Shown in pieces: positions 5,406 to 56,550 of a stretch of 64,000 nucleotides of DNA. The notes beneath the pieces are model-generated. The model had not been told where the DNA came from and ran no database searches. It worked only from the letters and a program-made list of their open reading frames with translations. Position 1 is the first letter of the stretch. Each line of letters opens with the position of its first letter. The translations under genes were made by a program, and so were the position numbers. Origin of the DNA: a virus (taxonomy: Duplodnaviria > Caudoviricetes); the IMG/VR virus record IMGVR_UViG_3300026094_000002; one strand, written 5' to 3'.

Positions 5406-6365
5406 TTAATTGTTTTTGTGGTTTTGTTTAATCCGAGCCAGTGGTTGACCGCCTCTTAGTGAATTTAGTACCCCCGGTCGACGCACCTCAATCCATGACA
5501 GCGTTCCGTTAGAAGTGACATTGTCAATAATTTCAAATCCAATGGTTTTTGCGATTTCTTTTACTTCATTTCCCGGCGTATAACAGTCATAGTTATGCTC
5601 ACTGTTCCTAGCCCCTTCAGGAAAGTCGCAGTTGTTAAATGTAAATATAAACATTCCGCCATCTTTGAGTAATGAAAAAACTTCGTTAAGGTATCGTTTA
5701 ATTGTTCCTAATGATTTTTGATTAAAAAATTCTGTTGCGACTATCAACCCAAATTGATTATCAGGAAACTGTTCAAATATGGGTTTATCTATATCTGATA
5801 TTGTTTTAAATCTCAACCGTGAACGGTAGTGTTCATTAAAAGTCTTTTTAATAGGTTCAAGCAACTCTTGGTGTATATCTACCAAATATAGTGGGTCTAA
5901 GTCAACTATATTTCTTGTCCATGTTCCGTTGCCCGGTCTTATGTGCATACCGGGATATTCCCAGTTACTATATATTTTACATCTTTCAATGAATAAAGAT
6001 TTTGTAAATTCGTGGTGTGTTTTTTCTCTGTCAGAAATCTTCTTTAATATTTGTTCTGGTGAATCTGTATTAGATGCTTGGTCTAATTTAACGCTCATTT
6101 CCCTAAGTTCGCCATCACAGTCTCGTATAAGAGAGTCAATATTTTTGATATATTCATCAAGTGCATCTACTGAGTCGCTTGATTTACTTTGTATATCAGT
6201 GAGTGTTGCATTTAAATTAGAGTTATCAATTTTGGTTTTTGATTTAACAAAATCTATATATGATTTAAATTTTTCAATGCTGTCGGAAAACTCTCTGACA
6301 GAAATTTGCCATTTAGTGTCAAGCAATAAGTTTTTTAAATTGATTAATTCACTGACTTTTTCCAT
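5406..6365 (-). CDS. class I SAM-dependent methyltransferase with N-terminal coiled coil
   Basis: HIRPGNG, LYLVD, QFGLIVATEFFN, LLKDGGMFIFTF; TAATG-coupled to the polymerase C half. Confidence 0.65.
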   Translation of the reverse strand: MEKVSELINLKNLLLDTKWQISVREFSDSIEKFKSYIDFVKSKTKIDNSNLNATLTDIQSKSSDSVDALDEYIKNIDSLIRDCDGELREMSVKLDQASNTDSPEQILKKISDREKTHHEFTKSLFIERCKIYSNWEYPGMHIRPGNGTWTRNIVDLDPLYLVDIHQELLEPIKKTFNEHYRSRLRFKTISDIDKPIFEQFPDNQFGLIVATEFFNQKSLGTIKRYLNEVFSLLKDGGMFIFTFNNCDFPEGARNSEHNYDCYTPGNEVKEIAKTIGFEIIDNVTSNGTLSWIEVRRPGVLNSLRGGQPLARIKQNHKNN

Positions 6366-7351
6366 TAGAATTCAAACATATCCTGAAATGTATTTTCTGT
6401 GTTTGTGGTACTAGACAAATCCCACTCTAGAACACCCAGTAAGTTGTCTAGTTTTTTATCAATAACTGTTGCTTCCATATCAGCATCATCAAACGGCAAT
6501 TCTTTGAACCAGTCAGGCAACCTTGACTCATCTGTTGGATATGCAATAGAAGTCCATCCAAGTGCGTTGGTCTTTAATTTACAAACAATAACCTTCATAC
6601 CGTCCATGATACTCATACTGTAATTGTCTGAATTCATCTTTTTCATATCGTTCCAGTTCATTGCAGCACGAACATGACCCGGCATATTTGTCTTTCCATT
6701 ACGCTTCTCACGCTGACTGTACATAGTCAGGTTATTAACACGCTTGGGTGAACCTTTTTCCCAGCCCGGTCGCTGTGTAAACTCTTTCTTGAAATCACGA
6801 ATTCTCTCAATGACTTCTTCTGTTGTTGCTGCATCTAGAACTGTAGCAAGTACTTCACTTAAAAAGTCTTGTATCACCTTGGGCGTGTCTGACCTTTTAA
6901 GATCCAAACCCATTGGTTTTACCTTGCCCGGCTTACCATTTTTATCAAGTCGCTTGCCTTCATTGTCTACCACCATGACTGCATACCGTTTCTTTTTAAT
7001 AAACAATCCACGAGAAGCGACAATTTCACGAGCACACTTTATAAGTTGCCCCATATGGCGAGGACTGTGGAATGCTTGTTCCATAAATGCAGGGAAACTG
7101 CTGCTTACTTGATCAGCAATGCCATCATAAAGTTGGATAACAGTTTCTTTATCCCAAGACATCTCGCCAGATTCAACTTCGTTTTTAACCATCGGCCATG
7201 CTGTAAAATAACAACTATCAGTATTATGTAAAAGTACGTCATTGCCGAAGAAAAATGGATCACCATTCGCAATGCTTATATCATAAACATATTCTTCGTC
7301 GTTACTTTTAATCTCTTCAATGGATTTTATTTTTTCTCGTACTATATTCAT
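6365..7351 (-). CDS. polB: family B DNA polymerase, C-terminal half, preceded by split-intein C fragment
   Basis: After HN the chain reads TDSCYF (motif C), then KKRYA and GLDLKRSDTP. Confidence 0.93.
   Translation of the reverse strand: MNIVREKIKSIEEIKSNDEEYVYDISIANGDPFFFGNDVLLHNTDSCYFTAWPMVKNEVESGEMSWDKETVIQLYDGIADQVSSSFPAFMEQAFHSPRHMGQLIKCAREIVASRGLFIKKKRYAVMVVDNEGKRLDKNGKPGKVKPMGLDLKRSDTPKVIQDFLSEVLATVLDAATTEEVIERIRDFKKEFTQRPGWEKGSPKRVNNLTMYSQREKRNGKTNMPGHVRAAMNWNDMKKMNSDNYSMSIMDGMKVIVCKLKTNALGWTSIAYPTDESRLPDWFKELPFDDADMEATVIDKKLDNLLGVLEWDLSSTTNTENTFQDMFEF
7223..7351 (-). other. split intein C fragment (IntC, 43 aa)
   Basis: MNIVREKIKSIEEIKSNDEEYVYDISIANGDPFFFGNDVLLHN|T: block F (VYDI), block G (HN), +1 Thr. 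Confidence 0.93.
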
Positions 7352-7361
7352 GTGTACTAGC

Positions 7362-8465
7362 CTAATTACCAGTTATTTTATTTAAATATTGTGTGTTTTT
7401 TGCTTTTCTGGTGCGTATATCTGAGTTACAAGAGCATATGCTATGAGGACAGGTGATCGTTTTATCAGGCCATCTTATATCGAAGTCAGATATGCGTCCA
7501 ATAGGACCACCAGCATAACAGAATCCTCTGTATATAAATCCATCATAATTTATATAAATACAATCAATACCAATGTAACAATGCCACCCCATAAAATTTG
7601 CCAAACCATTGCTCAATAATACAAGAGAATTTTTTTCTTCTGTGTGTGATTTGTAATGTACCCGTGTATCTTGCCATTCCTTCAAACTTTGATATTTTTC
7701 TATTATTTTTAATTCTTCTTTTGTATAATATTCTTTTATTTTTTTATTTGACGATTTTAATCTATGTAAATTTTTGTAAACGTTAGTTTTTATATCAAAA
7801 TATTTCTTTTTTTCTTTATATTGTTTTCTAGATATTTTTTTCTCACGGTCAGGGTCAATTTCAGGCAGATTGATTTTGTTGATAGTAAAATTTATTTGTT
7901 TTTCATTGAAAAATTTAACAATATCAGGAATATTTTTAACTTTTCCTGCTGCAGCCATTACATTGACATTTATAAACATAGATGTATTATTGTTAATATA
8001 AACTATTTTTTCTATAGTTTTTTCTATAATTTCTTCAGATTCTTCTATGTGTAAGCTAATTGTCATATTGGATAAATATCTACTAGCCTCTAAGTATGTG
8101 CCCAACTCTGCACTTCCATTAGTGACTACTCCAATTGAATATGTATTATTTTTGCTATCAATATATTTTAGTACATCTAAAAAGTCAGGATGAATGAATG
8201 GTTCACCGCCCGTAAAATCTATTTTAAATTTTTTGTCATTTAATATCGTCCAATGACTTATACTATCTATGGTTTTTTTAATATCTTCTATTGGTAAGTG
8301 TGGGCTAAATGAATCATGGGACCATGAAGGACAATATGAGCAATCATAATTACATCGTTTCCCAATCATCCAACTGACTGTTAAAACTTTTGGATCTTTA
8401 TTTTTGGCATGTTCTGGGCTTTCAAGAGAACTTATAGAAACAATATTATTAAGTTGAACTGACAT
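7362..8465 (-). CDS. radical SAM protein with C-terminal twitch/SPASM-like Cys cluster, lying between the two polymerase halves
   Basis: CNYDCSYC, FTGGEPF, VTNGS; C-terminal CYIG..C..CPHSICSC; very AT-rich. Confidence 0.9.
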   Translation of the reverse strand: MSVQLNNIVSISSLESPEHAKNKDPKVLTVSWMIGKRCNYDCSYCPSWSHDSFSPHLPIEDIKKTIDSISHWTILNDKKFKIDFTGGEPFIHPDFLDVLKYIDSKNNTYSIGVVTNGSAELGTYLEASRYLSNMTISLHIEESEEIIEKTIEKIVYINNNTSMFINVNVMAAAGKVKNIPDIVKFFNEKQINFTINKINLPEIDPDREKKISRKQYKEKKKYFDIKTNVYKNLHRLKSSNKKIKEYYTKEELKIIEKYQSLKEWQDTRVHYKSHTEEKNSLVLLSNGLANFMGWHCYIGIDCIYINYDGFIYRGFCYAGGPIGRISDFDIRWPDKTITCPHSICSCNSDIRTRKAKNTQYLNKITGN

Positions 8466-8471
8466 ACAAAA

Positions 8472-8477
8472 TACTTA
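8472..8477 (-). promoter_or_regulatory. late-promoter variant TAAGTA
   Basis: 6 nt upstream of the radical SAM ATG, the same spacing as TAAATA boxes elsewhere in the window. Confidence 0.45.
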
Positions 8478-8507
8478 GTTTTTTAAAAAATAGAATTTTT
8501 ATTCTTT

Positions 8508-8885
8508 TTAATTTTTTTCATCTGTGTATGTTATAAGATAGTCATCAGTTTTCAATTCTAAGGGAGAAACTTCTAGTGTAAATCCATCTCGATCAATTAT
8601 TAAACTATGGTCTTCAGTAACAATTATTTCTTTTCCAGTTTCACTAGTCACTTTATATTTTTTCTTTTTTGTTTCATGCCTCATGACATAAGATATTTTA
8701 CGCCATACCGCCTGATCATCGTGACTATTGTAACCCAAGACTTCATAAGAATCATAATCAGAAGTGGGGATAGCATATTCCTTATTTCCATCTTGAATTA
8801 CTTTATATGAAATTTGATTAAATAATTTCTCTATAGGAATAGAGCTACCATCGGAAATTTTAATTAGTGTATCGCCAGTGACACT
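8508..8885 (-). other. split intein N fragment (IntN, 125 aa)
   Basis: Block A SVTGDT (Ser1), block B VTEDHS (TxxH), stop after LITYTDEKN; no endonuclease domain. Confidence 0.92.
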
Positions 8886-10685
8886 ATCTCCGTATATTAT
8901 TGCATCACCAATATGGTCATATTCTCCAGTAATACACTCATTGGTATAGGCATCCATATGCTTGGCAATTGATCTTCCTGTCAGTGTCGTAGATTGTCCA
9001 ATACGCTTATCAAAAAATCTACATCCCGGGTTTAGAATGGCACCATAGAGAGAGTTAAGATTAATCTTCTTAACCAACTGTCGCTTATCCCAATATTCAG
9101 TATCAGCTTCTGTGTTGGCCTCACCTAATTTTTTCTGTAACTCTTTTCTTTCTGCATACCATCTCTGCAAAAGACCGGGTATAACGCCATCAAACTCATA
9201 TGTAAAAATGGTTCCATTGGCACTTAATGCCCATGGTTTGTTTGAATCAAAAATTAACTTCCAAATTTCTGCAGCACTATATGTTTCTGATTCACCTGAC
9301 TCCCAGTCAATAGTAATTTCGGTTCCTATTTCTTGATCCATAACTGCAGTATATTCTAAGGTAGCAAAAAGTCCCTCCCATGCAGCAGCAAATCCCATTC
9401 CTTTTTCCATGCGACTTTTTATTAATTGGTCAGTCATAATAGGACGAAGTTGACCTGCGATTGTTTCTGGACCCATGTTCAACGCCCGAATGACTGATGG
9501 GTACAGACTGTTAATATCAACAGAACCAATCCAATCATGCATTCCACGCTTCGGGTGTGCCACATATGCACCAGCGGCTTGCATTTCTTCAGTAGATAAA
9601 TCTTTTTTACGGTTGGGAACTACTAGTCCCCTTTCATGTGCTTCGTTAATAATTGCCTGTTCTGTAACGGCAACAGCACCCATTGTAGTAGGTAGAAGAA
9701 CAGTGTTTTCGTGTGCTAGTTTGTTTGCAAGATCTAAGAATCTTAACTTTTTGTCAATCTGTGCAAGGCCACGAACATCCTGTCTATTATATTCAATGAA
9801 TGTTTCAAAGTTTTGATTATATAGTTGATCAAGAGTCCCTTCATATACAGTTTTGGAGCCAAGATCTTCGTAATCCAATATGGCATCAAGACTGTAACTA
9901 TGCCTTTCTTCGTATGTGTATTTCCGATACAACTGCATATAGTCCATATGCACCCGACCAACAAGGTCAAATGTAACTTGTTCAGCACCGAACCTTTCAA
10001 ACTCTCTTTGCTTTGGCAATTGATCCCATAGACATAGTTTTCGCGTATCATCTTTGCTTAGGACTTTTGTTATACGAAGGACAGTGTATGGAATATCATA
10101 TCCCTCTGAGTTCCACCCAGAGAGAACATCGGCATCTTGAATAACTTCTAAAAACGCCTCAAGTAAATCTTCTTCACGCTCAAACATAAACGTGTCGTCA
10201 AACTTATCACCGATTTCTGTTGCAGTCTCCATACTCATATGCTTTGGTGGCATAGCAAACGTTACCAATCTGTCTAGCCAGTCTAGGTAAACGGTAATGG
10301 CAGTGATAGGCGTGAATGGATCGTCTGGACGCGAGTAACCCCGCTCGGGATCAAAATCAACCTCAATGTCAAAAAATGCAGTATGAAGAGTTGGTGCTTC
10401 AGCGTTTAAATAATTATCTGCTAAACACCGAAACACAGGGTTAATATCAGCCTCATACAACTGTTTTCCAGCGTGTGAGTTTTGCTCTCTTCTAAATTCT
10501 TTATTGCTTTTTGTGCTGAATCGGCTTACAGGAGTGCCGTAAATGCTACGGAACTTTCCTTTTGGGTCATCATAGTAAAACACATAAGAGGCTGGATATT
10601 CTGTATAATATCTTTCATTACCTTCTCTGCCGACTACGTGAATGCGATCTCGTTTACGATCAAATAAACAATCAATATAAGACAT
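8508..10685 (-). CDS. polB: family B DNA polymerase, N-terminal half (3'-5' exonuclease, motifs A and B), fused to split-intein N fragment
   Basis: FFDIEVD, GWNSEGYDIPY, YNRQDV, DINSLYPS, KINLNSLYGA, then IIYGD|SVTGDT. Confidence 0.95.
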   Translation of the reverse strand: MSYIDCLFDRKRDRIHVVGREGNERYYTEYPASYVFYYDDPKGKFRSIYGTPVSRFSTKSNKEFRREQNSHAGKQLYEADINPVFRCLADNYLNAEAPTLHTAFFDIEVDFDPERGYSRPDDPFTPITAITVYLDWLDRLVTFAMPPKHMSMETATEIGDKFDDTFMFEREEDLLEAFLEVIQDADVLSGWNSEGYDIPYTVLRITKVLSKDDTRKLCLWDQLPKQREFERFGAEQVTFDLVGRVHMDYMQLYRKYTYEERHSYSLDAILDYEDLGSKTVYEGTLDQLYNQNFETFIEYNRQDVRGLAQIDKKLRFLDLANKLAHENTVLLPTTMGAVAVTEQAIINEAHERGLVVPNRKKDLSTEEMQAAGAYVAHPKRGMHDWIGSVDINSLYPSVIRALNMGPETIAGQLRPIMTDQLIKSRMEKGMGFAAAWEGLFATLEYTAVMDQEIGTEITIDWESGESETYSAAEIWKLIFDSNKPWALSANGTIFTYEFDGVIPGLLQRWYAERKELQKKLGEANTEADTEYWDKRQLVKKINLNSLYGAILNPGCRFFDKRIGQSTTLTGRSIAKHMDAYTNECITGEYDHIGDAIIYGDSVTGDTLIKISDGSSIPIEKLFNQISYKVIQDGNKEYAIPTSDYDSYEVLGYNSHDDQAVWRKISYVMRHETKKKKYKVTSETGKEIIVTEDHSLIIDRDGFTLEVSPLELKTDDYLITYTDEKN

Positions 10686-10697
10686 TCTTATCCTTTT

Positions 10698-10747
10698 GTC
10701 GCTTATGGCCGACTAATACCATGATTCATATTCGTAATGTGAGCGAC
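10698..10747 (-). promoter_or_regulatory. structured 5' leader of the polymerase mRNA
   Basis: GTCGCT/AGCGAC stem enclosing two hairpins, directly followed by the AAAAGGA Shine-Dalgarno. Confidence 0.4.
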
Positions 10748-10767
10748 CCAATATAATGCGTGTTAAT

Positions 10768-11025
10768 TTAAAGAGTTTTGCCAGCAGTAGTTAGGATTGT
10801 TTCAACAAGTTCATGATCTTCTTGTTCTTGTGTGAAACTTGCTTTATGTGCAAGGCGAATGGCCTTCTTGAGAACAGACGGCTTAATATCAAGTTCTTCT
10901 GCAACTGCTTTAACAGTATCAGTAAGGCCAGAGTTAAGGGATTCAACTTCGTGCATGACTTGCATGCCTTCATTGATAATTTGAACAATCTTGGTTTTTT
11001 GCTCTTGGTCGAAGTGGTGTGACAT
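10768..11025 (-). CDS. dsbA: T4 DsbA-like double-stranded DNA binding protein
   Basis: 85 aa helical; DTVKAVAEELDIKPSVLKKAIRLAHK pattern; upstream of the polymerase. Confidence 0.65.
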   Translation of the reverse strand: MSHHFDQEQKTKIVQIINEGMQVMHEVESLNSGLTDTVKAVAEELDIKPSVLKKAIRLAHKASFTQEQEDHELVETILTTAGKTL

Positions 11026-11057
11026 ATTTTTCCTCTTATCAGTAATATAATTGCAAG

Positions 11058-11086
11058 AGTATATAGTATTGTGTTAATAATGTCAA
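11058..11086 (-). promoter_or_regulatory. sigma70-type promoter of the replication operon
   Basis: TTGACA-N17-TATACT. Confidence 0.8.
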
Positions 11087-11103
11087 TTGATTTTTTAGTG
11101 AAT

Positions 11104-11191
11104 AAAGTGCTCACTTTGTAAAACAGGGTAGCAGTCTATTTTACTGGCAGCAGCCGCCTTTTCACAACCCAAACGGTCCTAAGGGTTGAAA
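11104..11191 (-). ncRNA. candidate structured non-coding RNA
   Basis: GC-richer intergenic run of hairpins: CAACCC/GGGTTG, GGC..GCC, GTAAAATAG/CTGTTTTAC, AAAGT/ACTTT. Confidence 0.4.
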
Positions 11192-11437
11192 CTATGAATA
11201 TCTTAAAAGCCAATATGTGTGTAACTGATCAAGTATGTTTTGCATTGCAGGATCTGTTTTTGCCAATTCAGAAATTTTTAGAAATGTTTCGTAATCTATT
11301 TTTTGTTCGTTTGTGGTGACAGATATTTTTTTGCGTAAACTACTTCCCGGTTCCCGACGATAAACAGTTCGCCCACCATCTGTACTTTCATAGATGTAAC
11401 GGATTTTTTCTGATGTTGGAGTGCCAACCTGTGCCAT
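11192..11437 (-). CDS. hypothetical phage protein
   Basis: YIYESTDGGRTVYRREPG motif; in operon. Confidence 0.6.
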   Translation of the reverse strand: MAQVGTPTSEKIRYIYESTDGGRTVYRREPGSSLRKKISVTTNEQKIDYETFLKISELAKTDPAMQNILDQLHTYWLLRYS

Positions 11438-11443
11438 AATAAA

Positions 11444-11929
11444 TTAATCTGTTGCTTTACTGGTGGTCAAATAGACTTTTATTTTGGGTTCTGGCTTAGA
11501 TTTTTCTTTTGCATTTTGTTTAATTTTGGTTGCCATTTTTTCTGCACGATTCATTGCAATAGGTGAAAAATCTGATTCACCGGGAATAACTTTCCACACT
11601 TTGCCATTTATTTCTATAGCAACATTTTTTGGTTTGCCACGCATTTGGGAAGCCTCGTTCATCCCACGCTGGGATTTAAGTTGGTCTAACTCTTGTTGAA
11701 TGCGATCAATTGTTTGCTCAGCAGTTTCATTTTCTTGACTTAATCGTGATATGTCACGGCGATCCATTTTCTGACTTCTGTCAAAGTCATATAATAAGGC
11801 TTCAAGATCATTTTGAGCACCGGGATTTCTAACCCGCAATTGGCGAAGAATACGCTCCATACGATCAGATGTTGCTACACCAGTCGCTGGACTTTTTTCT
11901 TCGTCTTCAAAAAGGTCTTGTATATTCAT
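11444..11929 (-). CDS. late protein with MNIQDLFE leader
   Basis: TAAATA at 11951-11956; leader shared with other late genes. Confidence 0.65.
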   Translation of the reverse strand: MNIQDLFEDEEKSPATGVATSDRMERILRQLRVRNPGAQNDLEALLYDFDRSQKMDRRDISRLSQENETAEQTIDRIQQELDQLKSQRGMNEASQMRGKPKNVAIEINGKVWKVIPGESDFSPIAMNRAEKMATKIKQNAKEKSKPEPKIKVYLTTSKATD

Positions 11930-13106
11930 ACTTGTGTTCTTTGATTGTGGTATTTAGTTTTCTTTTTCTTCCAAATGTACTCTTTTTTGAAGACGAGTAA
12001 ATTTTTTTGTATTCGTAATTTTGAGGACAAAATTTACATTGTGGAATGTGATTTTTTAAATTGCCAACAAACTCTGATAGTTGTTCATCTGTCATATCAA
12101 TGTGTCCCACTGGGGCTGTATAAATTAATTCTCTATCTTTTTCTGACAAATCTAAATTAAATTGTTTATCAAATTCACTAAAAATTACTGAGGTTCCACA
12201 CTTGTTTAGTTTTCCATTTATGAAGTGATGAGAATGTTTGGTGTGGCAAATTTCATGTGCTTTTACTGGATCGCTGTCATGTAGTGTAAAACTATTTGTT
12301 TCCGGCTTAATTTTTAATGCTCCTTGATGAAAAAAATCTTCTAAGCAAATTTTTACTTTGACGTGGTTTTTATCAATTATTAAATATTCAGTCTGGTGAT
12401 GCTTTTCTTCATCTACATTAAAATCATATCGCTCTGTTGCTTCTTTTTTAAATCTTTCTTCAAGATTGTTCCATTCATTCATTGATGTGATTTTTGATAC
12501 CCATTCTTTACTTGGCTTTATTTGTTGGTAACGATCATTAATGCTTTTCCAAAAATAAAATGTTTTTACTAAAAACTCTAATTCATGATGAAACATTTTA
12601 TTTAATTCAGGCAATCCAGAGCAAATATCATTTGTATGAGTTAATTTTGGGAGAAAATCATATGCGGGTGTTTGAAAGATTTTAACTGGATGATGCAAAA
12701 ATGAAAGAACTGTTTCTAATATGTGATCACGACGATCTACATTATGCAGTCCAATGCTAACATTTGTTTTGTTTTCTAATAAAGTTTTATACAGTTCTTG
12801 GTTAAATTTTTTTTCATAGCTTCCATTAGTCACCAGCGTTGCATTATTAGTTTCTCCCCATAGATGTCTAATTCCCGAAATCCATTCAAGTAGGTCTGGG
12901 TTGCTCATTGGCTCACCACCTAAAATATAATAATCATTAAATTTTAGTCTTTTTGACCACTTTTCGTAAATGTCTTTATAATCACTCCATCGTTGATGAC
13001 CAGTAAATGCATAATTGTTGAACCTATTACAGCCTTCACAATTAAAATTACAGGTATGCGTTATATAAAACTCTACATAGTCAATGAATTCTCTATTATC
13101 AGACAT
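11907..13106 (-). CDS. radical SAM protein
   Basis: CNFNCEGC, LGGEPM, VTNGS, C-terminal CH..C..CKFC; AT-rich. Confidence 0.85.
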   Translation of the reverse strand: MSDNREFIDYVEFYITHTCNFNCEGCNRFNNYAFTGHQRWSDYKDIYEKWSKRLKFNDYYILGGEPMSNPDLLEWISGIRHLWGETNNATLVTNGSYEKKFNQELYKTLLENKTNVSIGLHNVDRRDHILETVLSFLHHPVKIFQTPAYDFLPKLTHTNDICSGLPELNKMFHHELEFLVKTFYFWKSINDRYQQIKPSKEWVSKITSMNEWNNLEERFKKEATERYDFNVDEEKHHQTEYLIIDKNHVKVKICLEDFFHQGALKIKPETNSFTLHDSDPVKAHEICHTKHSHHFINGKLNKCGTSVIFSEFDKQFNLDLSEKDRELIYTAPVGHIDMTDEQLSEFVGNLKNHIPQCKFCPQNYEYKKIYSSSKKSTFGRKRKLNTTIKEHKYEYTRPF

Positions 13107-13115
13107 TTATGACAT

Positions 13116-13937
13116 TTACATGTTGTTTGTAGATTTGCGAGAAACATATGCCTCACAAGCCTTTGCCGCCTCGTCTAATTCAGAAAACGTGCTTTTGGCT
13201 GGTTTTCCTTTAATAGAAATACGAAAACCATCATCTTCATTGCCATGAATCTTAATTTCCTGACCATCATCTGTAGTGTAAGTTTTAACAGATGGTCCGA
13301 TGCTGCCGGGGTCTGTTCTTGATACTTCGGCACTTTTTAGCTCAGCATCTTTATTAATAGTACTTGCCAAACTGTCAAGATAATCGCCTAACTGCATGGG
13401 TTGATCAGAAACAACATCTTCTTGCGTCTGCATATTTTCAGATCTTTCTAAATTTTTCTCAATGCTGCTAACCCATCCTGAAACATCAGAGGAACCGATT
13501 TCATCCAAATCATTCATCATTTCTGCTATGGAATCAACTTCACTCATTACTGCTTCTGGTCCATACTTACTTAAAAGATCAACATGTTTCATGGCTATTC
13601 TGCGTATGATTGCATTTTTAACTGCTTCGGTTGTATCATTGCTACTATCGTGTTCGCTTTCGCCACCAACAAAGTACCCTTTAGTAGGATGGTCTTTCTC
13701 TGGCTCACCAATTACTGGAGAAATGTTTTCAGGCTCAAAATCGCCCGGCAGTTGGTTTGCCTCCGGTACTTGTCTTGCCTCTTGGGTTGCCCTACCTTCA
13801 GTAAGTGTATCAAAACGATTCAAGATATTAGTAATATCTTTTGTACCATCTTCGCTCATAGATTTATTATTATCTACTTTTTTGCCATTAGAAATATCAT
13901 CTAGGGCATTAATTGCATTATAAATTGGATCAGTCAT
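13116..13937 (-). CDS. acidic modular late protein
   Basis: TAAATA 5 nt upstream; internal LTE/TTE/TQE junctions. Confidence 0.65.
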   Translation of the reverse strand: MTDPIYNAINALDDISNGKKVDNNKSMSEDGTKDITNILNRFDTLTEGRATQEARQVPEANQLPGDFEPENISPVIGEPEKDHPTKGYFVGGESEHDSSNDTTEAVKNAIIRRIAMKHVDLLSKYGPEAVMSEVDSIAEMMNDLDEIGSSDVSGWVSSIEKNLERSENMQTQEDVVSDQPMQLGDYLDSLASTINKDAELKSAEVSRTDPGSIGPSVKTYTTDDGQEIKIHGNEDDGFRISIKGKPAKSTFSELDEAAKACEAYVSRKSTNNM

Positions 13938-18383: not shown

Positions 18384-19190
18384 ATGAAGTATTTTGAAAA
18401 TGTACTCTCCAACGAAGATTTAATTCAACTCAATGAATACGAAATTGTCCATGATGACAGAACAGATGCACGTCCTGATGTTGTTAGCAAACATCCACGA
18501 TGGGACACTGACGAGTGGCCACAACACATAGTCAAAAAAGCATTAGATAGTTGTTTAGACTATGAGTATGAAGTGGAAGAGGTTATTTTCAATAGAAGCA
18601 AAATTAGTTTTCGCTTACATGCTGATTCCGGAAAAGACGAGAGAGCACGGCGAGGACATGCAGTCTTAATTCCTCTATACACTGATGGCCCATCACATAC
18701 GGTCTTCTTTGACAACTATTGGTATGGAGATAGTACAAAATTCAGCAAAGAAGAAATACTCCCATTTGAGTATCGCCTTCCTAACAAAGATGGTGAGTGG
18801 CAATATGTACCAGATATAAGAGAACTTCTTAACACTTGTGTTAATAATCCCGATAGCGTTGTTGATTTTGATGTTGATGCAGATTTTATTAAAGAATTAG
18901 AAAATCTTGTTGAGGCAAGGTCTAATCAAAAACTTAGCAAAGTAGATGGCAGAACATACGACTACAGTGATGTAGAAAATTATGATCCAGAGGCCACTTT
19001 TGATCCAGAACTACACGAAAAGTATCTTTCACATATAGGAATAGAAAGCCTTCATGGTCTTACTATTGAAAGTGCAGCACAATGGAACCCGGGTGATTGT
19101 ATTCGTTTTAGTCGCCGCCAACTACACGCAGCCGGGAGCGGCCACTCTGAGAAGGTTGGTGTGACTGTATTTGTTCAGCCGGTTGAATAG
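18384..19190 (+). CDS. putative 2OG-Fe(II) oxygenase-fold protein
   Basis: RLHADSG (HxD), AVLIPL, WNPGDCIRFSRRQLHA (distal His). Confidence 0.55.
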   Translation: MKYFENVLSNEDLIQLNEYEIVHDDRTDARPDVVSKHPRWDTDEWPQHIVKKALDSCLDYEYEVEEVIFNRSKISFRLHADSGKDERARRGHAVLIPLYTDGPSHTVFFDNYWYGDSTKFSKEEILPFEYRLPNKDGEWQYVPDIRELLNTCVNNPDSVVDFDVDADFIKELENLVEARSNQKLSKVDGRTYDYSDVENYDPEATFDPELHEKYLSHIGIESLHGLTIESAAQWNPGDCIRFSRRQLHAAGSGHSEKVGVTVFVQPVE

Positions 19191-21051
19191 AACACCGCCA
19201 GTAACGATTCTTTCTCTGGAAATGATATGCTACACGGACAAACTCTGATTCGCTCTGTATAGTATTACAATCTAAATGTGATATTTCTATATTATCAGCA
19301 TCAACTTCAAATAATGTCTGGCACAAATCAGGCTCAATCTCTATAGTAAATGGATATGTTTCACGCCAATCGGCACATATTCTACTATTAATTTCATAGA
19401 CTTTATCAGGAACCTCTGCAAAGTTATCAACAATTTGTTTCATTTCTTCAAGTAACTGTTGCCTATTTCTATGAAAATTAACACTGGTTGCACTTTTATA
19501 CTCCCAGAATATGTTGTCAATCTTCCGCCCCCACAATTCTTTGTGTTCAAACACATCTCTGATTGATTGGTCAGTCTCAATATGCTCTTTATAAATTAGT
19601 GTGTCTGGGTATTCAAGTAAACTTTCAATAAACATTTTGATGAACTGTGTATGACTTATATCGTGCTTTTTGTTTATGTAATCCATCAGTACATGTCCCC
19701 AGCCATAGTAGTATAGCGTTATCAACCAGTGAGCATGCAAATGTCCTGAAAGCATCTCTTCGTAATCAGCAGTATTTGTTCCCCATACTGCATCAACATA
19801 TTCGGGAACACGACCATTGTCTTCGTCATTCAACCAAAAAGTATCCAGCGGAACTGTTTCATATTTCAAACCATTCATCCTGATATAGTTACTTTGTCCC
19901 ATCAATGCGTTTGGCGTTAGGACAAGTGGATGCACCATTAAGAAATCTTTCTGGCCCATATCAATTAACTTTTGCATACCCTCTAAAAGACTATTAACAG
20001 TTTCGTTGGGCATAGGCCATATCATTTCGGAGTATGTGGGAATGTCGTTTTGGCGATAAAACTCCATTGCACCTTCTATGACATTTTCTTTTAGATTAAA
20101 TCTTTTTGTAGCATCTAAAGTTGGCTTATTCATGCTCTGAACAGCAAATGTTATGCCTTTAAACAAATTGGTACCTGCTTCTTTATCAGCAATAGCCATT
20201 TGTTTTATGCGTTCTGTGTTGTTCTTTGCCCATGTAACATCCCAAAATTTTGGATATCCGTTTTTAACTTTTTTGTCAATAACATATTTTGTTATGTCAA
20301 GGTCACGCTCCCATATGCCCCAATTAGAATCGCAAACACTGACATACTCAATTTGTCTATCACTCATCCAATCTATTTCTTCATGCACGCGGTCTATATC
20401 AAATGAAATTGTTTTATTCCAATACTTGTCACCAATATCACAAAAACCACATTGATACGGACATCCTCGCATTGTTTCATAGGTCACCTGCCACATAATG
20501 TCAGGGTCGTCATAGCGAGACATTATCCAGTCATAAAATCCAGAAAGGATAGGGCTTGGCAATTCATTCAAGTCTTTGGTTCTGACAGGCTGGTTAGTAA
20601 TCAATCCGGGAATTGATATGCCGGGGATATGGTCAAATTCACCAGTGTCTAAGTTTTTGACTACTTCGTTAAATCCAATCTCGTTTTCACCGAGTATAGC
20701 AACATCAAAGTAGTCGTGTGTGTATAGAAGATTTTCATCAGTCTTGCTTACTTGTGGTCCACCAATTATAATTTTACATTCTGGCCATCTTTCTTTTATT
20801 TTTTTCGCTAAACGACAATTGTACTCCCAGTTCCAAACATAACAACTCATTGCCATCATATCTGGCTCGTGTTGTATAGAATCTACATATTCATCTATAT
20901 TGACTTTTTCTATTAGAACATCTTGTAATTGCCATTGATTGGCTATATGGGGGTCTTTTAAAGCATTAAGCCACTGATATGCAATCGCTAAGGGAAGAAA
21001 TTTGTTTGGTCCGTATGAATCTACTACTTGGACAAGTATGGCATTTTTCAT
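19108..21051 (-). CDS. cobalamin-binding radical SAM enzyme (class B methyltransferase-like)
   Basis: SCYVWN, IIIGGPQ, GENE, ETMRGCPYQCGFC, CDSNWG. Confidence 0.85.
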   Translation of the reverse strand: MKNAILVQVVDSYGPNKFLPLAIAYQWLNALKDPHIANQWQLQDVLIEKVNIDEYVDSIQHEPDMMAMSCYVWNWEYNCRLAKKIKERWPECKIIIGGPQVSKTDENLLYTHDYFDVAILGENEIGFNEVVKNLDTGEFDHIPGISIPGLITNQPVRTKDLNELPSPILSGFYDWIMSRYDDPDIMWQVTYETMRGCPYQCGFCDIGDKYWNKTISFDIDRVHEEIDWMSDRQIEYVSVCDSNWGIWERDLDITKYVIDKKVKNGYPKFWDVTWAKNNTERIKQMAIADKEAGTNLFKGITFAVQSMNKPTLDATKRFNLKENVIEGAMEFYRQNDIPTYSEMIWPMPNETVNSLLEGMQKLIDMGQKDFLMVHPLVLTPNALMGQSNYIRMNGLKYETVPLDTFWLNDEDNGRVPEYVDAVWGTNTADYEEMLSGHLHAHWLITLYYYGWGHVLMDYINKKHDISHTQFIKMFIESLLEYPDTLIYKEHIETDQSIRDVFEHKELWGRKIDNIFWEYKSATSVNFHRNRQQLLEEMKQIVDNFAEVPDKVYEINSRICADWRETYPFTIEIEPDLCQTLFEVDADNIEISHLDCNTIQSESEFVRVAYHFQRKNRYWRCSIQPAEQIQSHQPSQSGRSRLRVVGGD

Positions 21052-25504: not shown

Positions 25505-26131
25505 TCAAAATTTATATAATTCAAAATTGTTTTTTTGATTAACCAAGATTTCATTAATTATATTTCTCAATGCAGTTTCAGAGTTTTCAATGCTAAAATC
25601 TGGTTGAATTCCAAAAGTCTTGAAATTATTTTTTTCTCCAAAACATTTCATTGACAAATAGTTGAAATATTTAAACGAACTATAATCAGGATGATTTTCA
25701 GTTCCTACTTTATTATAATCTATATAACTGCTAACCATGCATCCGACAGTTGAATCTTTTGATAAGTTTTTTTCTAGGTTATGAATAGTAATATATGGAA
25801 GTTGACAACTAAGCCAAAGACTGTTGGACCAATCTTTAATTCTTTTCCAGTGAGTTAATTTTCTGTAGTTGTTAGTGGCAAAATCGTCTATAGAAAGGCT
25901 ACTACTATTCTGATTGAAAAATAGAAAATGAATCGGGTCATCGATTAAACAAATATCATGTATTTTTTTAATATTCAAATCTTTCCATGAAATATTAATA
26001 TTTTTTACATGTGAAGATGTATGTGGATTCTGTCCAATATTGGTAACATTAAAGTTGTTTTCAAGCAATACATCAATTATAGATTTTCCATTTTTGTTTC
26101 CGCAACCAAATACTAATGCATTTTTTCTCAT
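25505..26131 (-). CDS. short-chain dehydrogenase-like protein (start likely 26131)
   Basis: ALVFGCGNKNG Rossmann start, YSSFK; ATGA-coupled to the radical SAM gene. Confidence 0.55.
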   Translation of the reverse strand: MRKNALVFGCGNKNGKSIIDVLLENNFNVTNIGQNPHTSSHVKNINISWKDLNIKKIHDICLIDDPIHFLFFNQNSSSLSIDDFATNNYRKLTHWKRIKDWSNSLWLSCQLPYITIHNLEKNLSKDSTVGCMVSSYIDYNKVGTENHPDYSSFKYFNYLSMKCFGEKNNFKTFGIQPDFSIENSETALRNIINEILVNQKNNFELYKF

Positions 26132-27303
26132 AGAGATAGATCCCAGAACACATTTTTCCAATTAGACCCAGCTATGTTATCAATATGATTTAAATAATTG
26201 TTATAATTTTCAGATTTGTCGTTTTCTAACTCATTTAAGCAATTAGTAAATTGCCCTACCAAATTCAAATCATGTGAATATTTTTCTTTTGCCGCTAAAA
26301 GATTTTCTTTAGCCTTTTTTTTGCTTTCATCTGGTAAATTTCTACATCTCAAGTAAGTATGACCCATCTGACACTGATTAATTGTAAAATCTCTTACGCC
26401 TATATTGTCATGGAAAAAATCTATTATATCAGTAATAGAAGTTCCGTTCAAGACAAAAAATACTAAATTTATTCTTACTTTTACATTTTTTTGTGATTGC
26501 AAAAAATTTATGTTATCAACAAATTTATCCCATTTGGCCCCACGTCTTATGTACTCAAATTTTTTATCTATTGAATCTGCACTACACGTGAATAATACAT
26601 TTGGGAACTTTAATATTTCTGATAAAATTTTATTATTTTTTTCCCACATCATATTAGAATTTACTCTAATAAGCAAGTCTGGACGTTTTTCCAATTTCTT
26701 TAGAAGATCTAAGTTATAATTAATATATGTGGGTTCGCCACCACTCAAATATACTTCTCTTAAATTATCTTGATTATTTTCAACCCAGTCAATTAATTTT
26801 GCAGCGGCTTCTGGTGGAGTATGTTGAACTGGAAGCCCTTGCTCTTTTGCTATAAGGCTACTTTGTCCAGCCCAGCAAGTAACACATTTTAAATTACATA
26901 CACTGCTCCAGTGTAAATCTAATCCACCCAAAGTGAAAGAGTTTGTATCATCATAGTCTATATCATTTTTTTTAAAGAGATTGTTATACATTCCCCGCAA
27001 ATGATTGTATTTTTTACTTTCTTGAAGATTTTCTAATTTTAAACAATTCTTACAATTTTTCGTCTTTTTGTCTTTAATGATGTATTCTTTGATTTTTTTT
27101 CTTTCTGCATTGCCGATAATTTCTTCCATAGAATTTGTTTTCAAATCACCTAGTTGGTAATTGCCGTTTGTACACGAGTATATTTCCCCTGTCATGTTAA
27201 CATAGAGTAAATTCCATGGAACACTACAAAAATGATTTGTTTGTTTAAAAAGTTCAAACCTTCTTTTATATTTTTGTTTTAAAGTAGAAAACATAGGCAT
27301 CAA
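26128..27303 (-). CDS. twitch/SPASM-domain radical SAM protein
   Basis: FCSVPW..C..CKNC, CNLKCVTC, LSGGEP; AT-rich. Confidence 0.88.
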   Translation of the reverse strand: MMPMFSTLKQKYKRRFELFKQTNHFCSVPWNLLYVNMTGEIYSCTNGNYQLGDLKTNSMEEIIGNAERKKIKEYIIKDKKTKNCKNCLKLENLQESKKYNHLRGMYNNLFKKNDIDYDDTNSFTLGGLDLHWSSVCNLKCVTCWAGQSSLIAKEQGLPVQHTPPEAAAKLIDWVENNQDNLREVYLSGGEPTYINYNLDLLKKLEKRPDLLIRVNSNMMWEKNNKILSEILKFPNVLFTCSADSIDKKFEYIRRGAKWDKFVDNINFLQSQKNVKVRINLVFFVLNGTSITDIIDFFHDNIGVRDFTINQCQMGHTYLRCRNLPDESKKKAKENLLAAKEKYSHDLNLVGQFTNCLNELENDKSENYNNYLNHIDNIAGSNWKNVFWDLSL

Positions 27304-55380: not shown

Positions 55381-56550
55381 TTAGTAAATTTTGAGAAGAC
55401 TGTTTAATTCAGGATGAGAATCAACTAATTTTTCTTCACGAAATAAATCTATTCTTTTAATTTCAGATTTTAATTCATTAAAATAATCAAAATTAGATTC
55501 ACCATCATTCATAAATTTAATAATATTATTAATATCATCGGTATCGTGAGGTAACAAGGCTTCTTCAATTTTTTCTTTTATGTCTTGCGGCAGATACTTG
55601 ACACAAAATCGTTCTTCAACAATTAACATACTCCAATTAATATGCATTAGGGGATAATGTTCTTTCATCCATCTTATAATTTTTTTAAAGTCTAATATAT
55701 TAAAAACGCTGACAGTCATATTACATGATAATGAGATATTTGTATTTTTATTAGCCAACTGCTCAAATGCATCCAAGTTTTTAACTAATGTATTCCAATC
55801 AGATTTTGATCTTTCATATTCAAATTTTTCAAAGATATTATCTATACTAACCATTATATCAACACTTTTGAATTTTTTCCAACTTTCAATAATATCTTTA
55901 TTTGGTAATATTGTTCCATTAGTAACATAGTCTATTTCAATATTTGAAACATCGCTAGTATTTGAAAATTTTTCAAGTAGTTGAAAGTGCTGATTTATCA
56001 GGAACGGTTCACCACCATAAAAACTTATTTTGGATAATAATGGAAGGTAATTTTCTAAATCCTCCCAAAATACTTTTGATGTTATAGGCCATTGTCCTTT
56101 TTTAAGAATTTCAAATTCAAACGAACTGCGTTTTTCTTCATCAGAATGGGTTTTTAATTCATTTTTTGCCCAGATACTACTTGCCCACGGCCCACATATT
56201 CGACACCGCAAATTGCATATGTTTCCAAATGCAATTGATAAACTGCTAAATTGACTTTGAACATCACCATTAAAATCAGTTTCTTTTTGCCTCAAACTCA
56301 TAATACCATTATCTTCTTCTTGCCAGCATTGAGCACAGGAAATAGGTTTTTTATTGTTTGATAAATCAGAGCGTAATTTTTTTAGATGATTGCTATTATA
56401 AATCTCATAAAAAGAATTTTTATTAACATTAAATTCTAAATTGTTTTTATCTTTAAGCCTATCACCCCAAATACAACATGGTGCTACACTACCATCCGCA
56501 TTAATTTCTAAGTTTTTCCATGGCTTACTACAAAAAGTTTCAGACAACAT
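55381..56550 (-). CDS. twitch/SPASM-domain radical SAM protein
   Basis: FCSKPW..PCC..CAQCW, CNLRCRIC, FYGGEPF, TNG; AT-rich. Confidence 0.88.
   Translation of the reverse strand: MLSETFCSKPWKNLEINADGSVAPCCIWGDRLKDKNNLEFNVNKNSFYEIYNSNHLKKLRSDLSNNKKPISCAQCWQEEDNGIMSLRQKETDFNGDVQSQFSSLSIAFGNICNLRCRICGPWASSIWAKNELKTHSDEEKRSSFEFEILKKGQWPITSKVFWEDLENYLPLLSKISFYGGEPFLINQHFQLLEKFSNTSDVSNIEIDYVTNGTILPNKDIIESWKKFKSVDIMVSIDNIFEKFEYERSKSDWNTLVKNLDAFEQLANKNTNISLSCNMTVSVFNILDFKKIIRWMKEHYPLMHINWSMLIVEERFCVKYLPQDIKEKIEEALLPHDTDDINNIIKFMNDGESNFDYFNELKSEIKRIDLFREEKLVDSHPELNSLLKIY

Follow-up and report, generated by a model that had tools for sequence, protein, structure and literature searches.

Genes broken by split inteins have been placed in a gene-breaking model by Dassa et al. 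(2009, PMC2677866), in which loss of the endonuclease is step III and the later uncoupling of the two halves is step IV; the gp41-7 locus described there is a fractured gene without an endonuclease. The split PolB intein of the Pseudomonas jumbo phages MIJ3 and PA5oct has also been published already (Imam et al. 2019, PMC6892783), and in these phages the order is polB-N, an HNH/Hef-like gene and polB-C. [quoted passage not shown] We analysed a window of 64,000 nt, that is, the whole stretch of DNA considered here, from the 194-kb IMG/VR record IMGVR_UViG_3300026094_000002 (about 56% complete according to CheckV), the genome of a large uncultured jumbo phage. Here a conserved essential gene is found in two adjacent ORFs with one intein part each, as in a fractured gene, and in the place between the parts where Dassa et al. 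expect a free-standing homing endonuclease there is a gene for a radical SAM enzyme, putatively of the twitch type. In our view the best explanation, and a probable one, is a fractured gene of the known type with a split intein, in which a radical SAM cassette occupies the gap as a passenger.

All features of the locus are on the minus strand. The polB-N ORF (8508-10685, 725 aa, reading IIYGD|SVTGDT) consists of a 600-aa N-extein (8886-10685) that carries the exonuclease and polymerase domains (PF03104, PF00136) and ends in IIYGD, followed by IntN (8508-8885, 125 aa plus the stop codon). The polB-C ORF (6365-7351, 328 aa, reading VLLHN|TDSCYF) begins with IntC (7223-7351, 43 aa, with blocks F and G and an HN end) and continues into a 285-aa C-extein (6365-7222) that opens with TDSCYF and supplies Thr+1. 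A conserved class I methyltransferase-like gene (5406-6365, 319 aa) lies immediately 3’ of polB. Motif C of the family-B polymerase is interrupted at YGD|TDS, and Pfam finds both DNA_pol_B and Intein_splicing on each half, in agreement with the sequence-only reading that a split intein divides the catalytic motif. Both ORFs are open, and joining the exteins in silico gives 885 aa, the product size that had been predicted. One polB and one intein were found when the whole 194-kb record was searched. The N-extein is 58-79% identical to the intein-less polB of the related phages L006-L019, and the C-extein is 90% identical to the 3’ part of polB in L020, L021, L108 and L109.

In an alignment with the inteins of L005, KP13-7 and SCTP-2, the Ser1 nucleophile directly follows the N-extein (IIYGD|SVTGD). 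IntN has the NX motif R69-H70 (His preceded by Arg or Lys, as defined in PMC10189870) and the block B motif T87-E-D-H90, both conserved in all five aligned inteins, while block G provides the penultimate His, the terminal Asn and the +1 Thr. No cysteine is present in IntN or IntC. IntN is 52% identical to the IntN of L005 and 36-37% identical to the inteins of PA5oct and SCTP-2. Judged by these residues and identities, the intein belongs to the known jumbo-phage PolB intein family (MIJ3/PA5oct, SCTP-2) and classifies as a class 1, cysteine-free Ser1/Thr+1 intein, split at the usual position of endonuclease insertion.

We propose that a single family-B polymerase gene was interrupted in motif C by an intein which then split, and that IntN and IntC would bring the two products together, so that trans-splicing would give the 885-aa polymerase. 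The predicted IntN-IntC complex supports binding, with an ipSAE of 0.76 against 0.07 for the best of three controls, a score that may stem from the model's memory of solved split inteins; in the benchmark of complex scores, 51 of 78 solved complexes and two of 108 mismatched pairs attained the mark. Agreement between the runs extends to at least 89% of contacts, and the partner pLDDT is at least 69. Intein-less split polB genes are known, for example in Atu_ph07 and in T4-like Aeromonas phages (cited in PMC2677866), and the halves might likewise never be spliced, forming either a non-covalent two-chain polymerase held by the intein parts or a decaying pseudogene pair. This is very unlikely, as the catalytic residues of the intein are all intact (Ser1, RH, TEDH, HN and Thr+1), the two open ORFs occur with identical sequence in several samples and the record has no second polB. 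Intein halves retained in the metal-binding YGDTDS would, moreover, probably obstruct the active site. Going by the residues and the modelled complex, the two products are most likely trans-spliced.

The sole gene between the polB halves (7362-8465) encodes a protein of 367 aa, which had been read as radical SAM/twitch from the ORF list and whose Pfam matches are Radical_SAM (PF04055, 42.5 bits against a cut-off of 29.5) and Fer4_12 only. The cluster motif CNYDCSYC at residues 38-45 (8331-8354) is invariant in 25 family members, and the GGE-type SAM-binding motif GGEPF and the C-terminal cysteines C296, C316, C339 and C344 (within 7434-7580) are also invariant in the family. An AF2 model of the protein (mean pLDDT 78) has a partial TIM-barrel fold and matches BlsE, MoaA and viperin at a Foldseek probability of 1.00, with further fold matches to SkfB, CteB, anSME and DesII; the C-terminal cysteine-rich region, which in a twitch or SPASM enzyme would bind an extra Fe-S cluster, is covered by the matches to SkfB, CteB, anSME and SpeY. 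Pfam gives no SPASM match, and for NF033640 the score is 40 bits, below the cut-off of 170. Two specific identities found no support, namely viperin (NF038283, 54.3 bits against 180; TIGR04278, 41.4 against 450), whose alignment with the gap protein covers the radical SAM core only, and MoaA, the GTP 3’,8-cyclase (TIGR02666, 49.8 bits against 284). A nuclease domain hidden in this gene had been considered in the sequence-only reading; profile searches of Pfam, NCBIfam and PHROG at E <= 0.1 found none, including no HNH, GIY-YIG, LAGLIDADG or Vsr-like domain, and the listed fold matches are all radical SAM enzymes, with no nuclease among them. What occupies the gap is a gene for a radical SAM enzyme, not one for a homing endonuclease.

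The spacer between IntN and the radical SAM gene (8466-8507) is 42 nt long, has a GC content of 0.12 and contains a weak AT hairpin followed by a T-run. Between this spacer and the one of 10 nt on the other side, the gap has no space for a further gene. The TAAGTA box noted earlier for the radical SAM gene is present (8472-8477, minus strand), 12 nt before the ATG, where it occupies the place of the TAAATA found at -11 to -13 in 22 other genes. TAAGTA is not enriched across the window (16 observed, 36.5 expected) and is 5.9-fold enriched within 60 nt upstream of genes. The radical SAM gene, with this box of its own, might be co-transcribed with the replisome, as the sequence-only reading suggested. 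A possible promoter of polB-C is a TAAATA box (7379-7384, minus strand) that lies inside the radical SAM gene, near its 3’ end, and 33 nt ahead of the ATG of polB-C. The gap had further been described as much richer in AT than the exteins. This holds for the radical SAM gene (GC 0.286, against 0.398 and 0.402 in the exteins) but does not single out the cargo, as IntN (0.307) and IntC (0.295) are similarly low.

Could the arrangement be an assembly chimera of two co-occurring phage variants? The gap layout (L189) and a layout with the radical SAM gene after polB (L022) do occur in the same run, and the contigs with polB followed by the radical SAM gene all break inside polB-C, as do all contigs of the L020/L109-type phage. 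Against this, Logan contigs from two runs (L189 and L190), encoding the identical radical SAM protein, cross both junctions, one of them matching the window without any difference, and the junction of IntC with the radical SAM gene is also spanned in two further studies, by contigs of about 98-99% identity. A chimera is thus extremely improbable; independent contigs from several studies carry the same layout, which is therefore not a misassembly.

Related contigs reveal what may lie at this position. In 14 related phages polB has no intein. SCTP-2 has a contiguous polB mini-intein, and L005 has the same split intein with an empty gap of 36 bp. Nuclease-like gap genes are found in three relatives, PA5oct, KP13-7 and L026 (with domain matches to DUF723, REase_MTES_1575 and DUF559 among them), those of KP13-7 and L026 being weakly restriction-endonuclease-like or Vsr-like. 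The suggestion that the intein makes the gene a tolerated landing site agrees well with this range of intein-less, empty, nuclease-filled and radical SAM-filled states, and the gap can tolerate cargo because all that a split intein requires is that IntN be followed by a stop codon and IntC be preceded by a start codon. The companion suggestion, that the cargo would be hard to delete, fares badly in view of the empty gap of L005 and of the mixed populations, in which intein-less joints (7222->8887) occur and the depth in run X4 is 3-12 over the gap and 500-2000 over the exteins; from these data the intein-less alleles far outnumber the split allele. One phage group provides a natural series at polB, from intein-less through nuclease gene and empty gap to metabolic gene, and the proposed path from a fractured gene to a dispersed split gene becomes directly testable.

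The radical SAM family is expanded in this phage, with 13 radical SAM genes in the 194-kb contig, four of which are scattered and have low GC, and it appears to turn over as single-gene cassettes between core genes. In L020, L021, L108 and L109 an ortholog (68% identical) is located at the polB/methyltransferase junction; in L020 and L109, 51-nt repeats (48/51) lie on both sides of this cassette, which also borrows the first five codons of the methyltransferase. In the same genome, a B12-type radical SAM cassette has direct repeats of about 52 nt at its flanks. In L009 a different radical SAM gene separates the methyltransferase from the gene that follows it. The closest relative known for the region carries the ortholog just after polB, between the 51-nt direct repeats, which suggests that the gap cassette probably came from the neighbouring polB/methyltransferase junction; local recombination most likely brought it into the gap of an intein that was by then split and emptied. 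A weak similarity (p about 0.025) links the 42-nt spacer to the repeat at the L020 junction. The radical SAM gene is most likely a passenger, a mobile accessory cargo in a permissive gap. A bolder generalisation, which we put forward tentatively and think doubtful as it stands, is that the radical SAM genes of this jumbo-phage group form a distinct class of mobile single-gene cassettes that insert at gene junctions, duplicate a target of about 50 nt and take over the start codon of the gene downstream together with its first codons, one such cassette having hopped from the polB/methyltransferase junction into the emptied gap.

Two independent radical SAM cassettes, each flanked by repeats of about 50 nt in which a gene start is duplicated, and radical SAM genes at three different positions around polB in related phages, might suggest more, namely that the cassette is an active selfish element aimed at gene starts and junctions which replaces the homing endonuclease in fractured genes. 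We consider this unlikely. The gap protein has no nuclease, recombinase or transposase domain, and no flanking direct repeat was detected around the gap cassette or around three other scattered copies. HNH_3 and GIY-YIG are absent from the record save for one faint, sub-threshold GIY-YIG match, and the repeat length fits homologous recombination run by the phage better than self-encoded transposition (cf. PeSL shuffling as outlined in Arbiol et al. 2010, PMC2839356). The repeats at the two cassettes point to a recombination route by which this greatly expanded enzyme family spreads in jumbo phages.

The sequence-only reading had also considered the polymerase, the splicing reaction or newly made DNA as the target of the enzyme. 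More broadly, it might be functionally tied to the polymerase or to DNA synthesis, its position selected for co-expression with polB-C, and it could modify the polymerase or the splice junction, a nucleotide precursor or DNA just synthesised. In each of the three closest lineages the gene adjoins polB-C, within the gap in P0001 and immediately after polB in P0003 and P0004, which could also reflect a functional link; polB-C starts 10 nt past the radical SAM stop codon, without a good Shine-Dalgarno sequence, and the translation of the two may be coupled; and the nearest solved relatives (viperin, MoaA, BlsE and DesII) act on nucleotides or nucleotide-sugars. The protein's large, mostly viral family speaks otherwise. 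Among 166 family loci (1.8 Mb covered) polB is nearby in four and an intein in none, P0005 (59% identical) is in an unrelated gene context, and relatives at 37-42% identity belong to radical SAM arrays, where they adjoin other radical SAM genes and a homolog of the contig's own 361-aa array protein. In most related phages, moreover, replication relies on a polB that lacks the intein and has no gene of this kind in its vicinity, and the viperin and MoaA models are far under their cut-offs. A functional tie is accordingly improbable, and the gap enzyme probably does not act on the polymerase. The contig's own radical SAM array includes a carbamoyltransferase and a hexapeptide acyltransferase, and the enzyme probably works with this array of radical SAM, carbamoyltransferase and acetyltransferase proteins on a nucleotide-linked or sugar substrate.

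How new is the locus? The split PolB intein in jumbo phages is already known from MIJ3/PA5oct (PMC6892783), and the new element is the radical SAM cargo only. With these phages the locus shares a related PolB (48% identical), the motif C site, the same internal split, a single gap gene and a homologous intein that has the same blocks A, B, F and G and is 36% identical in its IntN part; their gap gene, however, is a 560-aa HNH/Hef-like homing endonuclease, and their insertion is two residues later (YGDTD|S, Ser+1), whereas here it precedes Thr+1. SCTP-2, a Salicola phage, has a homologous Ser1 intein, also with RH and TEDH, inserted at the identical point (YGD|TDS), but that intein is contiguous and has Lys in place of the penultimate His. 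Cyanobacterial DnaE and Nanoarchaeum equitans PolB are also trans-spliced replicative polymerases with unrelated genes between the halves (summarised in PMC2677866); there the halves are at distant loci, while here a distance of 1.16 kb and a single gene separate them. Aes123 PolB1, PolB16 OarG and Neq Pol (PMC10189870) share Ser1, Ser/Thr+1, an Arg before the NX His, a PolB host and a natural split, a likeness of chemistry and motifs; distinctive of the present intein are the typical split of 125 + 43 aa and the complete lack of cysteine. As inteins of this kind are so rare and useful, it and its L005 relative are candidates for testing.

The shuffling of PeSLs in T4-type phages, as outlined by Arbiol et al. 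(2010, PMC2839356), likewise involves the gain and loss of single accessory genes between core genes at short repeats in large myoviruses, but the repeats outlined there are promoter-stem-loop motifs, whereas here they are duplicated junctions composed of the polB 3’ end and the first codons of the next gene. If the bolder generalisation about such cassettes is true, it would also show that essential genes become landing sites for metabolic cargo through split inteins. The loci of Dassa et al. (PMC2677866) are alike in having an essential replication gene split by a split intein with a short gap, yet none of the 27 is described with an unrelated enzyme in that gap. The empty gap of L005 matches step III of their model, and by comparison our locus resembles an intermediate of steps III and IV, in which a foreign gene sits in the emptied gap.

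The window corresponds to positions 63021-127020, on the minus strand, of a 194.5-kb IMG/VR record, and because CheckV rates this record as about 56% complete, the virus is a jumbo phage. The sequence-only reading had described three abutting minus-strand ORFs, and the ORF calls bear this out. The N-part of polB (8508-10685, minus strand) encodes 725 aa with exonuclease and polymerase domains and an intein splicing domain (Pfam), the radical SAM gene (7362-8465, minus strand) encodes 367 aa with a Pfam Radical_SAM match above the gathering cut-off, and the C-part of polB (6365-7351, minus strand) encodes 328 aa with the end of an intein domain and the polymerase C-terminal region (Pfam). The N-extein ends in IIYGD and the C-extein starts with TDSCYF. 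IntN and IntC, the two parts of the split intein, are 125 and 43 aa long, and the joined exteins come to 885 aa. The gap had also been described as much more AT-rich than the exteins, and this too holds, with a GC content of 0.29 in the radical SAM gene and 0.30 in each intein part against 0.40 in each extein. Both polB and the intein occur once in the whole record, in which no HNH_3 domain and only one faint, sub-threshold GIY-YIG match were found. A megablast search of the region against 50,697 phage records gave no match.

The arrangement recurs in independent data. Two Logan contigs (assembled contigs of sequencing runs), each from a different run, span polB-N, the radical SAM gene and polB-C, and among the contigs of four runs placed on the region one matches 6879-10509 with zero differences. 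The exact radical SAM protein is present on five contigs, and variants with 98-99% identity bridge the IntC/radical SAM junction in two further studies. These contigs and variants lead us to reject misassembly, and the gap arrangement is not an artefact. The same read-contig data contain joints from ~7222 to 8887, an exact match to the intein-less allele, and in run X4 the depth is 3-12 over the gap versus 500-2000 over the exteins. The intein-plus-cargo allele is therefore a minority among related phages.

A survey of what lies between the halves in related polB loci, proposed in the sequence-only reading, identified intein-less, empty-gap, nuclease-like-gap and contiguous-intein states. In fifteen IMG/VR loci with polB N-exteins 58-79% identical to that of the window, polB is intein-less in 14, the N- and C-extein matches abutting exactly. 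L005 (73% identical), the one remaining locus, has the intein, likewise split: a 36-bp gap with nothing in it separates the end of the first ORF (4263) from the start of the second (4300), which follows a good ribosome-binding site. The published gene-breaking model has a matching stage (‘endonuclease lost’), and its gp41-7 locus matches as well (PMC2677866). L005 also shows that an empty gap is viable. The earlier suggestion that the cargo would be hard to delete is contradicted by this split intein with an empty gap and by the dominance of intein-less alleles.

The nearest cultured relatives of the polB are jumbo phages, PA5oct/MIJ3 (48% identity) followed by Phosso, SCTP-2, Atu_ph07 and Rak2-like phages. 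At the PA5oct locus a 560-aa ‘Hef-like homing endonuclease’ separates polB-N from polB-C. For MIJ3 this arrangement is in print, as an HNH gene together with a split PolB intein that is related to the mini-intein of SCTP-2 (PMC6892783). The SCTP-2 mini-intein is contiguous. In KP13-7 the gap gene encodes 325 aa with a weak restriction-endonuclease-like match. A scan with IntN as the query returned two distant loci and no others. A homologous split intein is found in the IMG/VR locus L026 (2889-7021), whose polB is distant (26% identical) and whose 355-aa gap ORF has only a faint DUF559 (Vsr-like) match. The annotation of Agrobacterium phage Atu_ph07 (L003, 5001-7970) divides polB into two neighbouring ORFs, neither matching an intein, and the break lies at another place, around residue 520-560 of the window's protein.

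The intein of the window can be aligned with those of PA5oct, SCTP-2, KP13-7 and L026. Its Ser1 is followed by an Arg-His pair at 69-70 and TEDH at 87-90, it ends in HN before Thr+1, and neither IntN nor IntC contains a cysteine. In PA5oct the insertion point (YGDTD|S) is shifted by two residues towards the C-terminus. The Arg-His pair fits the NX motif that has been described as specific to cysteine-independent Ser1 inteins, and the same literature terms split inteins of this kind very rare (PMC10189870). In a model of the complex between IntN (with 10 extein residues) and IntC (with 12), the ipSAE was 0.76 versus 0.07 for the best control, the contact agreement between runs was at least 89% and the partner pLDDT was at least 69. 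With these values the model passed, reaching a mark that 51 of 78 solved complexes and 2 of 108 mismatched pairs also reach. Since solved split inteins exist, the predicted complex speaks for likeness to split inteins, not for activity.

Database searches at E <= 0.001 gave 252 relatives of the radical SAM protein in the gap. Most of the family is viral, and a profile scan of IMG/VR gave at least 459 matches; a scan with the single protein as the query found no relative, but the profile scan did. Across an alignment of 25 relatives there is no variation in the CNYDCSYC motif, in GGEPF or in four C-terminal cysteines, and the sequence marks the gap protein as a constrained enzyme, not a relic. 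Membership of the viperin and MoaA families was rejected, as the NCBIfam scores were far below the cut-offs, and the matches to twitch-type families in NCBIfam were also well under theirs. The AlphaFold model (mean pLDDT 78, pTM 0.80) has a disordered Lys-rich loop at residues 203-234, and the fold matches listed are radical SAM enzymes only: BlsE, MoaA, viperins, SkfB, CteB, anSME, DesII and SpeY. A nuclease hidden in the middle gene, an alternative raised earlier, was rejected, no nuclease domain being found by domain or profile searches or among the fold matches listed.

The radical SAM genes of these phages appear in several places near polB. P0003 and P0004, the gap gene's closest orthologs (66-68% identical), are on contigs whose polB-C is 90-91% identical to that of the window. 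They lie directly after polB and before the conserved methyltransferase-like gene, in DNA that is otherwise collinear (L020, L021, L108, L109). The contigs with these orthologs all start inside polB-C, and a look-up by the neighbouring 243-aa protein gave short contigs only. The arrangement of polB followed by the radical SAM gene is also found in run X3 (joint 8444->6355). In L020 and L109 a 1217-bp radical SAM cassette is flanked, at the polB/methyltransferase junction, by 51-nt direct repeats (48/51; 642-692 and 1859-1909 in L020, 646-696 and 1863-1913 in L109). Each repeat spans the junction, with 30 nt from the end of polB, the TAATG overlap and the opening codons of the methyltransferase, and the first five codons of the radical SAM ORF are those of the methyltransferase itself. 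A third position is seen in L009 (7829-8902), where a different radical SAM gene, of an N-terminal-domain type, lies between the methyltransferase and the conserved 243-aa gene; this insertion is absent in L006, L007, L016 and L019, and L010 has the same extra spacing (spacing only) between the methyltransferase and the next conserved gene. Radical SAM genes thus fill three slots around polB in related phages: the intein gap, the polB/methyltransferase junction and the L009 site.

The same signature is seen elsewhere in the window's own genome. A B12-type radical SAM gene (515 aa; G000:C1 136726-138595, outside the window) has direct repeats of ~52 nt on either side, 1818 bp apart (L191 1726-1777 and 3544-3595), in which the downstream gene's ribosome-binding site, ATG and initial codons are duplicated, and it is a discrete cassette insertion. 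Searches around the gap cassette and around the genes for radical SAM proteins at 11907, 19108, 26128 and 55381 found no direct repeats. The 42-nt 5’ spacer of the gap gene aligns weakly with the L020 junction repeat (score 22 versus 15.4 +/- 2.5 for shuffles, p ~0.025). This hints, as a lead and not a result, that the gap cassette came from the neighbouring polB/methyltransferase junction, and the TAAGTA box of the gap gene may have descended from methyltransferase codons. The 319-aa methyltransferase-like protein (5406-6365, minus strand) has a class I domain at residues 145-240 and a long N-terminal helical region. Its gene follows polB in most related loci, is absent from L013, L017 and L018, and diverges much faster than its neighbours (24-52% identity versus 38-84% for the next gene).

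The contig has 13 radical SAM genes, seven arrayed and six scattered. Four of the six scattered genes have a low GC content (0.28-0.30). The further single genes in the window lie at 11907-13106, 19108-21051, 26128-27300 and 55381-56550, and three of these four have a GC content of 0.28-0.30 versus 0.37 for the genome. The seven-gene array, at 156.7-167.6 kb (region L188; G000:C1 154025-168607, outside the window), is accompanied by a NodU/CmcH-type carbamoyltransferase, a hexapeptide acyltransferase and several proteins without family matches, and probably serves to tailor a substrate that is a sugar or nucleotide-linked; a 361-aa array protein had no Pfam match and no usable Atlas match.

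Among 166 loci with members of the gap-protein family (1.8 Mb) none has an intein, and polB is nearby in only four (L020, L021, L108, L109). Relatives at 37-42% identity adjoin a homolog of the 361-aa array protein and other radical SAM paralogs (L028, L030, L110, L111, L113). Given the rare proximity to polB and these array-like neighbourhoods, we think that the gap enzyme belongs to the phage's multi-radical-SAM tailoring pathway and that its position inside polB is incidental. Its nearest solved folds act on nucleotides or nucleotide-sugars, the sole hint of a substrate, and we regard this account of its function as possible, if somewhat doubtful. A family member (41% identical) in a 250-kb myovirus-like contig (L024, 8852-10443) has SufE, an A-type Fe-S carrier and a Cu/Zn superoxide dismutase encoded nearby, which could serve the supply or protection of Fe-S enzymes.

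The hexamer TAAATA is the most enriched upstream of the contig's genes (10-fold) and lies 11-13 nt before the ATG in 22 genes without an intervening Shine-Dalgarno sequence. TAAGTA is 5.9-fold enriched; five genes, the gap gene among them, have it at -12 to -16. In 28 genes of the contig, for example those starting at 13937, 25458 and 2297 (minus strand) in the window, one of the two boxes precedes the start codon by 10-17 nt and the intervening stretch lacks a Shine-Dalgarno sequence. The boxes resemble T4-type late promoters driving leaderless or near-leaderless mRNAs; the contig's other genes have AGGA-type ribosome-binding sites. polB-N has an AAGGA ribosome-binding site and neither box. 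The start signal of the cargo seems to be its own. polB-C, which lacks a good Shine-Dalgarno sequence, starts 10 nt past the cargo stop codon, with a TAAATA 33 nt upstream, within the 3’ end of the cargo, and its expression may now rely on transcription or translation of the cargo. Within 6200-11200, sites resembling sigma-70 promoters or intrinsic terminators are at chance level. Among the listed runs that contain this stretch, none is an RNA run.

The cysteine-free split intein and the duplicated-junction cassettes are most worth pursuing. The split PolB intein described here is a further member of a published family, while the state of the gap, a radical SAM gene between split-intein halves, is new; a literature search found no paper that brings split inteins and radical SAM genes together in a phage. 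The gaps described in the fractured-gene literature contain an endonuclease or nothing, and the known cases of unrelated genes between the two parts of a split intein are confined to widely separated halves, as in cyanobacterial DnaE and Nanoarchaeum PolB. The locus is best read as an intermediate between an endonuclease-containing or empty gap and far-apart halves, produced by an unusually mobile enzyme family.
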